Below, piece by piece: positions 59,658-60,724 of a stretch of DNA of 64,000 nucleotides (position 1 is its first letter; every line of letters starts with the position of its first letter). A program made the translations under genes and the position numbers. The notes beneath the pieces were generated by a model. The model saw nothing but the letters and a program-made list of their open reading frames with translations. It did not search any database and was not told where the DNA came from. This stretch comes from Rickettsiales bacterium. GTDB taxonomy: Bacteria > Pseudomonadota > Alphaproteobacteria > Rickettsiales > UBA1997. The stretch spans positions 17,204 through 81,203 of the forward strand of contig CANEVP010000003.1 in the NCBI GenBank assembly GCA_947442475.1, written 5' to 3'.

Positions 59658-60176
59658 ATGACAAAAAATTTAAAACAAGATAAAGACAAGGTATCCTATT
59701 TTCGTCTAAGAAACGCTACTCTGGCAGTGTTTATTGGATTTTTAATCAAAGCGATTTACGACATGCTTTGGGCAAAAGATTTGGTTTTGAATCTGTCAAA
59801 AGCGACGGCCTTGATTTCAAATGAAAATATTGTGGATGCGATTTCGTTTGCCAATCAGGTTGGTAGGCTTGATTTGGTTTCTTTGCTGTTGGCGCTTTTG
59901 GGAATAATTTTGGGGTTTGGTGCGATTGCAGGTTTTATGCACATTAAAGAAACTTCTGAAGCGATAGCGGAAAGAGAGGCCAAGAAATGGTTAAGCAAAA
60001 AAGAAGTTAAAGCTATTTTTCATGAATGGATAACTGACAACAAAGAAGATTTTGAACGTATGATAAAGTCTGTTGTTCAAGATAAAATTGAGGAAATGGG
60101 TGAAAAAAATTCCCCGAGTACTGATCCAACAACCAACGATAGAGAACTGGCGGAAATGCCGCAAAAGGAGGACTAA
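59658..60176 (+). CDS. Hypothetical membrane protein (2 TM segments plus a charged cytoplasmic tail)
   Basis: 172 aa. The TM segments are ATLAVFIGFLIKAIYDMLW and LVSLLLALLGIILGFGAIAGFM. Its stop overlaps the start of the ImmA/IrrE gene (ATGA). Confidence 0.55.
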   Translation: MTKNLKQDKDKVSYFRLRNATLAVFIGFLIKAIYDMLWAKDLVLNLSKATALISNENIVDAISFANQVGRLDLVSLLLALLGIILGFGAIAGFMHIKETSEAIAEREAKKWLSKKEVKAIFHEWITDNKEDFERMIKSVVQDKIEEMGEKNSPSTDPTTNDRELAEMPQKED

Positions 60177-60724
60177 TGAAAAAAGAGCAAAAAAATAAAC
60201 TGGAATATTCTTTAGATGACTTGTTGACAAGCATCCCAATAAATATCGAAGCGCTAATCCGTGCTCATGGTCTAGAGCTTAACAAAAATGCTGATTTAGA
60301 AGACGGTGTTCTTGGGGAGTTGAGATATGAAAATGGTAACTTCAAAGTTTCGGTCAAAAAGACCGATCACTATTATAGAAAGCGCTTCACCATGGCGCAC
60401 GAACTTGCTCATTTTGTTCTACACAAAGATATAATCTCTGGCGATGTAATCAGAGATTACGATCCGGAGGTAAGCAATAATGGCAGTTATATAAATAGAG
60501 AGGTTGGGGTTTCTAATGAACAAGAGTTCGAGGCGAATTTGTATGCCGCAAAACTTCTGATGCCAGAGGATCTTGTGGTGGATTATGCAAAAGAAAGAGG
60601 TGTTTTTGTTGATGGTAACATTGATGAAGAGGCTCTAAAAGAAATTGCAATGGCTTTCCAAGTTTCCAAAGATGCAATGAGAATAAGAATAAGCGGCCTA
60701 AGACAAAAAATTCAAACCAACTAA
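60176..60724 (+). CDS. ImmA/IrrE-family zinc metallopeptidase
   Basis: 182 aa. It has HELAHFVLH followed by EQEFEANLYAAKLLMPEDLV, the HExxH...E-x-x-AN-x-x-A-x-x-LLMP signature. Confidence 0.85.
   Translation: MKKEQKNKLEYSLDDLLTSIPINIEALIRAHGLELNKNADLEDGVLGELRYENGNFKVSVKKTDHYYRKRFTMAHELAHFVLHKDIISGDVIRDYDPEVSNNGSYINREVGVSNEQEFEANLYAAKLLMPEDLVVDYAKERGVFVDGNIDEEALKEIAMAFQVSKDAMRIRISGLRQKIQTN

Follow-up and report, generated by a model that had tools for sequence, protein, structure and literature searches.

Peptidases of the M78 family, such as ImmA, IrrE/PprI and CapP, are understood as gene switches that act by cutting XRE repressors. In the 64-kb stretch of contig CANEVP010000003.1 analysed here (hereafter the window), from a Rickettsiales bacterium, a gene of this family lies immediately downstream of a gene for a small membrane protein, and no XRE-type or other helix-turn-helix (HTH) open reading frame (ORF) adjoins the two. 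The locus raises the question of which partner such a peptidase has when the repressor is missing, and of what the pair might do. We compared the pair with related loci and contigs, labelled by L-numbers (L001, L214 and so on), and found that the membrane protein is the conserved partner of this M78 peptidase, in the slot that an XRE protein holds in related pairs. Neither the family of the membrane protein nor its clade-wide partnership with M78 in place of an XRE repressor is described in the libraries and papers that we searched; in the literature searched, the coverage of which was incomplete, we found no description of a pair made of an M78 peptidase and a membrane protein.

A membrane protein in the place of the XRE repressor

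The upstream gene, ORF1, occupies positions 59658-60176 of the forward strand and encodes 172 aa; the downstream gene, ORF2, occupies 60176-60724 of the same strand and encodes 182 aa. The initial annotation had placed both here, as a two-helix membrane protein and an ImmA/IrrE metallopeptidase with an HExxH motif, between bioB and a RidA-family gene and with no HTH gene adjacent, and our analysis of the window bore this out on each point. Both flanks are conserved: bioB on the left (58525-59574, +), recognised by its Pfam Radical_SAM and BATS domains and by synteny, and the RidA/YjgF-family gene on the right (60737-61201, +), recognised by Pfam. The latter starts 12 bp past ORF2, with which it is probably co-transcribed; of the 16 relatives compared, 11 have 5-18 bp at this place, and the full range is -14 to 40 bp, one mis-called gene excepted. 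ORF1 and ORF2 had also been described as translationally coupled through an ATGA overlap. They do overlap, but by a single base in a TAATG junction (GGACTAATGAA), and the overlap itself is not conserved, the distance between the two genes varying from -89 to +67 bp in relatives. A Shine-Dalgarno-like AAGGAGG (60165-60171, +) lies within the end of ORF1, 4 nt 5' of the ORF2 ATG. Each gene has many homologues and, against the closest relative, the ratio of nonsynonymous to synonymous substitution rates (dN/dS) is 0.29 for ORF1 and 0.13 for ORF2, which indicates that both genes are real.

ORF2 is an ordinary peptidase of a known family. It matches Pfam Peptidase_M78 (PF06114) with E=3.2e-13 and 50 bits, for a cut-off of 22, and the PADLOC capP model with E=5e-27, over profile positions 4-154 of 242 only. 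Its HELAH zinc-binding and catalytic motif (60398-60412, +; H75, E76 and H79) is nearly invariant among 39 subfamily members, and an HExxH motif is present in every M78 of our set of loci. Glu117 (60524-60526, +), in an E-x-E-A-N-x-x-A-A helix, is likewise nearly invariant among these 39 proteins, lies within the stretch that aligns with IrrE and is the presumed third zinc ligand. The AlphaFold2 model (pLDDT 84.6, pTM 0.81) has the IrrE/CapP peptidase fold, with matches to CapP (7t5t, E=1.4e-6) and to PprI/IrrE (8sln and 3dte, E~1e-4), and sequence-profile matches in the PDB were to an HTH-M78 protein, IrrE and CapP. ORF2 is a single-domain protein that consists of the peptidase and a small helical subdomain, with no GAF-like domain and no cysteine. 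Since it has neither a signal peptide nor a hydrophobic segment, it should be cytoplasmic.

ORF1 ('MEM' in our alignments), by contrast with this well-known peptidase, belongs to an unmodelled family: it has no Pfam, NCBIfam or PADLOC model, and its members are labelled "hypothetical protein" in RefSeq. A word-indexed search returned 13 close homologues, and a profile search of 1.84 billion representatives returned 467 proteins of 77-254 aa at E<=1e-3, 93 of them at E<=1e-10; no protein among the homologue-search matches fuses ORF1 to M78. In PHROGs we found a single weak match (E=0.003), to a family of unknown function. Matches to DUF5305 (E=0.015) and to the PADLOC 'Cyclase' model (E=4e-4) cover short coiled stretches and do not recur in relatives, and we rejected both as noise. 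The protein has two hydropathy peaks, at residues ~20-40 and ~73-95, ahead of a C-terminal tail that is charged and mostly helical. In the AlphaFold2 model (pLDDT 81.6) two long helices (7-52 and 58-112) form a hairpin, after which come two short helices and a disordered end; we found no match for this model among PDB folds.

The family is defined by the signature D-x-IS-x-A-x-Q-x-GRLD, followed by a glycine-rich transmembrane (TM) helix and a conserved juxtamembrane helix, all of which are found in the window protein (E=9e-44 with a local hidden Markov model, HMM, of the ORF1 family). The signature helix ENIVDAISFANQVGRLD (residues 56-72; 59823-59873, +) is the best conserved part in alignments (column conservation 0.80): no variation occurs at G69, L71 and D72 across 71 members, and almost none at D60, A65, Q67 and R70. 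It is predicted to be periplasmic, just ahead of TM2 (residues 73-95; 59874-59942, +; hydropathy 2.66, conservation 0.68), which carries the glycine-rich motif GIILGFGAIAGF and in which, in the close family, G86, F87, G92 and F93 are invariant and S75 and L76 conserved. The juxtamembrane cytoplasmic helix IKETSEAIAEREAKKWL (residues 96-112; 59943-59993, +), with a nearly invariant A104, has a conservation of 0.52 versus 0.30-0.32 for the rest of the tail, and is in our view the best candidate for peptidase contact or cleavage. The variable parts are TM1, the inter-helix loop and the tail. TM1 (residues ~20-40; 59715-59777, +; hydropathy) is poorly conserved (0.38) and missing from the homologues of L024, L026 and L036. 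The charged tail (59994-60173, +; alignments), which the initial annotation had singled out together with the two helices, is among the least conserved parts of the protein, the conserved core being the GRLD helix, TM2 and the juxtamembrane helix; it has a hydrophobic and acidic end, ELAEM...KED, and many non-syntenic relatives read A-D/E-x-I-A-x-A where the window has ELAEM. The density of lysine and arginine in the family (0.24 in the N-terminal tail, 0.11 in the loop and 0.15 after TM2) suggests that the N-terminus is inside, the loop outside and the C-terminus inside. The inter-helix stretch is between roughly 15 and 80 residues long. Exactly two cysteines are present in 10 of 29 loops, often as a CxxC (CKPC, CETC, CPSC, CPTC or CPQC) just before the GRLD helix, as in L014 (3663-4175), L034 (4353-4862), L030 (4418-4966), L027 (191-697) and L018 (~4700-4990). 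Such a pair could form a disulfide, a redox sensor or a metal site; ORF1 of the window has no cysteine.

The co-occurrence of the two families, on which the initial annotation had made its proposal depend, is seen from both sides. Firstly, starting from ORF1, a PF06114 gene lies immediately downstream of the ORF1 relative in all 8 context look-ups, three of which concern distant relatives found only via ORF1 similarity. Secondly, starting from the peptidase, a scan with an M78 alignment, keeping one genome per species, gave 80 loci, and in 27 of them the local ORF1-family HMM showed that the ORF directly upstream, in the same orientation, belongs to the family; when the window and previously fetched contigs are added, the loci with the pair number 44. 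Among the 30 M78s closest to ORF2 (L017-L046), 25 have an ORF1-family partner and L018 a degenerate copy, while L035 and L037 are cut by a contig end and L038 and L043 have no partner. The apparent exceptions L018 and L079 do contain an ORF1 copy, degenerate or divergent. Thirdly, in more distant M78s the upstream slot is filled by a Pfam HTH_3 protein. With a local XRE HMM built from such Pfam-verified HTH_3 partners, we found an XRE upstream of M78 in 25 loci, all of which lack the membrane partner, and none within ~5 kb of the membrane-partnered M78 in 43 related loci. The same HMM finds only two XRE-like ORFs in the window, a hipB-like one (13771-13977) and a weak match (25860-26120), and the hipBA-like pair to which the former belongs lies ~46 kb from ORF1 and ORF2. 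A hidden XRE partner nearby is ruled out, since the HMM finds none beside membrane-partnered M78s and the clear XRE of the window is hipBA-like. Nor did we find similarity between the ORF1 tail and the C-terminal domain of the XRE partners (hhalign probability 0.1). In a neighbour-joining tree, the M78s with a membrane partner, those with an XRE partner and those of a third, four-gene arrangement described below form three separate clades; the tree is a rough one, built by neighbour-joining only, and the partner types nonetheless sort cleanly. Judged from these gene neighbourhoods, the pairing of ORF1 with M78 is not a matter of chance.

The XRE-M78 modules ImmR/ImmA of ICEBs1, DdrO/IrrE(PprI) of Deinococcus and CapH/CapP, which regulate cyclic oligonucleotide-based antiphage signalling systems (CBASS), are two-gene units of an XRE repressor and an M78 peptidase. 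ORF2 shares the peptidase family and fold with all three, and the order is the same: the partner gene lies directly upstream of the peptidase gene in the same orientation, and in the window the two overlap by one base. ImmA of B. subtilis is a single-domain protein of ~170 aa, and ORF2 resembles it in this respect. In contrast, the partner in the window is a two-helix membrane protein with no HTH and no detectable similarity to XRE partners, neither ORF1 nor ORF2 provides a DNA-binding output, no XRE gene is adjacent, and the ORF2-type peptidases form a clade of their own. Unlike CapP and IrrE (278-301 aa), ORF2 has 182 aa, no C-terminal GAF-like domain and no cysteine, and does not belong to that subtype. 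The groove for single-stranded DNA (ssDNA) and the cysteine switch reported in CapP (bioRxiv 10.64898/2026.05.16.725639) are inapplicable to ORF2, because it has no GAF-like domain and no cysteine.

Two further groups of systems share features with the pair. COG2856-type toxin-antitoxin (TA) and defence modules (Xre-COG2856, RmrA of RosmerTA and the spr1629-type antitoxin) have the M78 domain in common with ORF2; COG2856 has been predicted to be part of TA-like modules (PMC2701414). The RmrA and antitox_spr1629 models match ORF2 weakly and over the peptidase core only (for example profile positions 188-263 of 363). Like these modules, the window pair is a small, mobile and patchily distributed cassette; unlike them, with their M78 fused to or paired with an XRE HTH and their soluble toxin partners (PIN, RelE and others), it has no HTH and its partner is a membrane protein, so that it is neither a RosmerTA nor an Xre-COG2856 module. 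The second group comprises four-gene cassettes, found in Bacteroidota, Kordiimonas, Alteromonas and others, in which a protein with two TM helices (2TM) and an M78 precede one protein of ~360 aa and another, divergent, of ~210 aa (L047 4278-7165 and L076 4232-7182; also L057, L060, L063, L067 and L071). In L047 and L076, the two loci tested with PADLOC, the ~360-aa protein matches beta (E=1e-56; also PD-Lambda-2_C) and the ~210-aa protein matches cII, and the 2TM component has no PADLOC model. Beta and cII are two of the three genes of gop-beta-cII, an anti-phage system of P4 satellites that gives protection from lambda and P1 (PMC9122126). The window pair resembles these PD-lambda-2/gop-beta-cII-like cassettes in having a 2TM protein followed by an M78, and the 2TM protein of L076 is a weak member of the ORF1 family. 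It differs from them in that it is flanked by bioB and ridA with no beta or cII; their M78s fall in another clade, and their 2TM proteins mostly lack the GRLD signature. Restriction- or helicase-like genes adjoin some of the four-gene cassettes.

By analogy with ImmR/ImmA, DdrO/IrrE and CapH/CapP, ORF1 would be the natural candidate for the specific partner of ORF2. Our tentative preference, held with less than full conviction and short of calling it probable, is that the pair is a self-contained module of the TA or defence type, in which ORF2 is dedicated to an ORF1 effector that it holds in check. The main rival, which we regard as doubtful, reverses the roles: ORF1 would be a membrane sensor that picks up an envelope or periplasmic signal with its variable loop and switches ORF2 on or off, and ORF2 would cleave an unlinked target, such as a distal repressor or another protein. 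The length variation of the ORF1 loop and its recurrent cysteine pairs suit a sensor, as does the fact that ORF2, lacking the GAF sensor domain of CapP and IrrE, needs some other input; known M78s are indeed switched by external signals, ssDNA in the cases of CapP and PprI (bioRxiv 10.64898/2026.05.16.725639, PMC10904395). Against it, in none of the 43 loci is a candidate substrate, XRE or other, linked with the pair, and the only clear XRE of the window sits in the hipBA-like pair.

A recombining cassette at the bioB-ridA site and its copies elsewhere

The window lineage consists of uncultured low-GC alphaproteobacteria; related metagenome-assembled genomes (MAGs) bear the labels Pelagibacterales or Rickettsiales, and lakes are the source of several. 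The order bioB-ORF1-M78-ridA is kept in 22 related contigs, though genes farther out differ. This set was found via the pair; in an independent metagenome search, which used RidA alone, five of the seven RidA relatives with at least 75% identity carry the pair, one (L101) has purE upstream and one (L098) has an empty site. In L098 bioB and ridA are 93 bp apart with nothing between them, and its BioB shares 77-87% identity with the BioB proteins of genomes that have the pair, whose own range of mutual identity is 73-98%. Because this empty site occurs in a genome whose BioB falls within the diversity of the group, the pair is dispensable. The presence/absence polymorphism that the initial annotation had proposed to look for at the bioB-ridA junction does exist, and its description of a small accessory insertion agrees with the empty site, with the incongruent, hypervariable alleles described below and with lone copies in unrelated contexts. 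It does not hold as a sporadic insertion within the lineage itself, where the same locus is occupied in the 22 contigs and in five of the seven relatives retrieved with RidA.

Sequence divergence within the cassette is high and out of step with that of its flanks. Median pairwise identity is 37% for ORF1 and 46% for M78, versus 83% for BioB and 80% for RidA, and individual genomes are incongruent: compared with L001, L029 is 98% identical in BioB, 35% in ORF1 and 66% in M78; L028 is 95% identical in BioB and 97% in RidA, 86% in M78 and 45% in ORF1; and L003 is 89% identical in BioB, 91% in ORF1 and 95% in M78. In three of three close genome pairs the synonymous divergence (dS) is lower in the cassette (0.09-0.35) than in the flanks (0.50-1.28), while dN/dS of ORF1 and ORF2 in these three pairs is 0.12-0.39 versus 0.04-0.10 in the flanks. 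Between the window and its closest relative, L214, dS is 0.13 and 0.30 in the cassette versus 0.62-0.64 in the flanks, and sliding identity revealed a near-identity tract of ~650 bp across the ORF1-ORF2 junction (~59740-60400, +; 95-100% identity, flanks 82-91%), an apparent tract of recent recombination. The high and incongruent divergence, the cassette dS below that of the flanks and the near-identity tract together indicate that several divergent alleles are exchanged by recombination at this one site, with both genes under purifying selection. Purely vertical fast evolution is ruled out by the lower dS of the cassette and by the incongruent identities.

Outside this lineage the pair is present in the cultured Alphaproteobacteria Kaistia adipata, Celeribacter sp. 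PS-C1, Aminobacter aminovorans, Nitratireductor alexandrii, Marinimicrococcus flavescens, Ferruginivarius sediminum and a Microvirga species, as well as in MAGs labelled Melainabacteria and Verrucomicrobiales. There it has no recurring neighbour; where a neighbour could be identified, it proved to be one of various unrelated housekeeping genes (arfB-like, pncB, yggS-like, mnmG, comM twice, carB, an MFS transporter and others). A general functional link to RidA or bioB is ruled out, as these outside pairs are near neither gene and in L098 ridA directly follows bioB. The comM/yifB gene (Mg-chelatase-like), on the opposite strand, adjoins the pair in two unrelated genomes (L031 1796-3010 and L045 5459-6994), which may be a coincidence or a preferred region of insertion. 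In a separate set of loci (L066, L078, L081, L088, L092, L095 and L096), seen mostly in Firmicutes and other phyla, the order is reversed, with M78 first and a 133-189 aa protein with two hydrophobic helices downstream.

Some copies lie in mobile contexts. In L046 an IS1595 transposase adjoins the pair; the distant copy of L216 (1-4300) shares its island with a gene for the toxin HicA, part of a phage integrase and a transposase HTH gene, bioB following ~2.4 kb on; and L182, an IMG/VR contig found via the M78-alignment scan, is prophage-like and carries the pair with an anti-repressor-like neighbour. ORF1 was not found by tblastn in PLSDB plasmids or GenBank phages, and a scan of IMG/VR with the close-family ORF1 alignment gave no match. 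The peptidase, on the other hand, occurs alone on five IMG/VR contigs (L177-L181; GC content 0.34-0.36), with no membrane or XRE partner adjacent (for example L178 2980-3516). The three of these contigs that were tested against PHROGs (L178, L180 and L181) encode an endolysin, a single-stranded DNA-binding protein and a DNA methyltransferase. The solo phage M78s share 51-54% identity with host M78s of the membrane-partner clade, and many host copies are less alike than that.

These data bear on two further alternatives. According to the first, the pair would have a lineage-specific housekeeping role, in the processing or quality control of membrane proteins or as a scaffold and its maturation protease within the bioB-ridA operon, and its divergence would reflect weak constraint. 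Such a role would account for the constant location in the 22 contigs and in most of the relatives retrieved with RidA, for the tight spacing to ridA, for the housekeeping nature of the identified neighbours and for the purifying selection on both genes. It is contradicted by the empty site in L098, a relative within the diversity of the group, by the patchy distribution across Alphaproteobacteria, Melainabacteria and Verrucomicrobiales in unrelated contexts, and by the mobile, prophage and solo phage copies; a cassette dS below that of the flanks, and ORF1 identities of 35-45% next to BioB identities of 95-98%, are impossible under relaxed vertical descent. We consider a housekeeping role unlikely. 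The second alternative is entry exclusion, ORF1 blocking phage DNA or another element at the inner membrane with a diversifying periplasmic loop, and ORF2 only setting its level. The predicted periplasmic loop and TM1 are indeed variable around a fixed core, several divergent alleles occupy one locus, and one copy lies beside the anti-repressor-like gene of L182. However, the cytoplasmic tail is as variable as the loop, searches of PHROGs and PADLOC showed no resemblance to known exclusion proteins, and the constant retention of a dedicated protease is left unexplained, so that we hold exclusion to be quite improbable.

A possible mechanism and the points that weigh against it

We return to the preferred reading, a module in which ORF2 restrains an ORF1 effector. 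In what follows we infer the topology, oligomerisation, cleavage and toxicity, and the defence or addiction role, of ORF1 and ORF2. ORF1 would insert into the inner membrane with its N- and C-termini in the cytoplasm, and would oligomerise via the glycine-rich TM2 and the GRLD motif at its boundary, in a form that can perturb the membrane. ORF2, in the cytoplasm, would bind ORF1 or clip it at the juxtamembrane helix or the tail, a restraint that would be antitoxin-like. If ORF2 were lost or blocked, for example during takeover by a phage, the ORF1 effector would be released. The module would be kept as a dispensable cassette, recombining at the bioB-ridA site in low-GC alphaproteobacteria and standing alone elsewhere, and the solo M78 of some phages would possibly be a counter-measure. 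The accessory, recombining and multi-allelic behaviour of the pair and the solo phage peptidases fit a conflict module of the TA or defence type. In its most specific form, the proposal is that ORF1 is a protease-gated, pore-forming inner-membrane effector of a TA or abortive-infection system in small-genome aquatic alphaproteobacteria, with divergent alleles kept by recombination at one chromosomal site and phages countering it with a solo peptidase. It would be a new class of effector, for which an ImmA/IrrE-family peptidase gave up its repressor substrate; we consider this version rather unlikely.

Several points weigh against a restrained effector. The ORF1 family has no PADLOC match and, in the neighbourhoods examined, the pair is not in defence islands. 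In most of the lineage genomes sampled it sits at the same locus, in an apparent housekeeping operon, a retention that also fits a lineage-specific cellular role. Unlike classical type II TA systems, the pair lacks a DNA-binding component through which it could regulate itself. GRLD, the best conserved motif, is probably periplasmic, beyond the reach of a cytoplasmic protease, and the solo phage M78s could instead serve the phage's own regulation. Finally, the type of ORF1 tail does not track the type of M78 (between L028 and L001, as seen above, M78 is far better conserved than ORF1), which argues against a tight co-evolution of a tail substrate with its protease. This weak co-variation would suit a regulator better than a substrate, and in this the membrane sensor introduced above has an advantage. 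One would not expect a regulator acting in trans, however, to be dispensable and hypervariable and to be swapped as a cassette, and solo copies of the protease on phages are hard to explain if ORF1 is a sensor.

If the preferred reading of a restrained effector is true, the same protease logic that operates on XRE repressors can act directly on a membrane effector, since here a whole clade of M78 peptidases is tied to a membrane protein that lacks a DNA-binding domain. Being unmodelled and labelled "hypothetical", the ORF1 family is missed by present annotation and defence-finding pipelines. The locus would also provide a compact conflict-type case in uncultured low-GC alphaproteobacteria, where few such systems are known: its site is fixed and has an empty variant, its very divergent alleles recombine, and phages carry the protease alone. 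Should the pair prove to be housekeeping instead, it would still be a new conserved pair of a membrane protein and a protease.

Other features of the window

The hipBA-like pair (12485-13977, -) consists of a 68-aa XRE-type HTH ORF (13771-13977) directly upstream of a 426-aa HipA-like kinase ORF (12485-13765); its XRE is the only clear one of the window and is unrelated to the M78 gene. The weak match to the local XRE HMM (E=4e-4) is an 86-aa ORF on the reverse strand (25860-26120). Downstream of a glyoxalase gene, a PALP-family (threonine dehydratase-like) gene (61706-62624, +) is split in two frames near position 62025; its relatives are single proteins of 303-321 aa, and the split is either a frameshift, that is a pseudogene, or an assembly error. 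A 566-aa ORF on the reverse strand (53530-55230), with a GC content of 0.32-0.34 (~54000-54600) versus ~0.41 for the window, ends beside a tRNA gene (55491-55564), and this stretch is possibly a separately acquired region.

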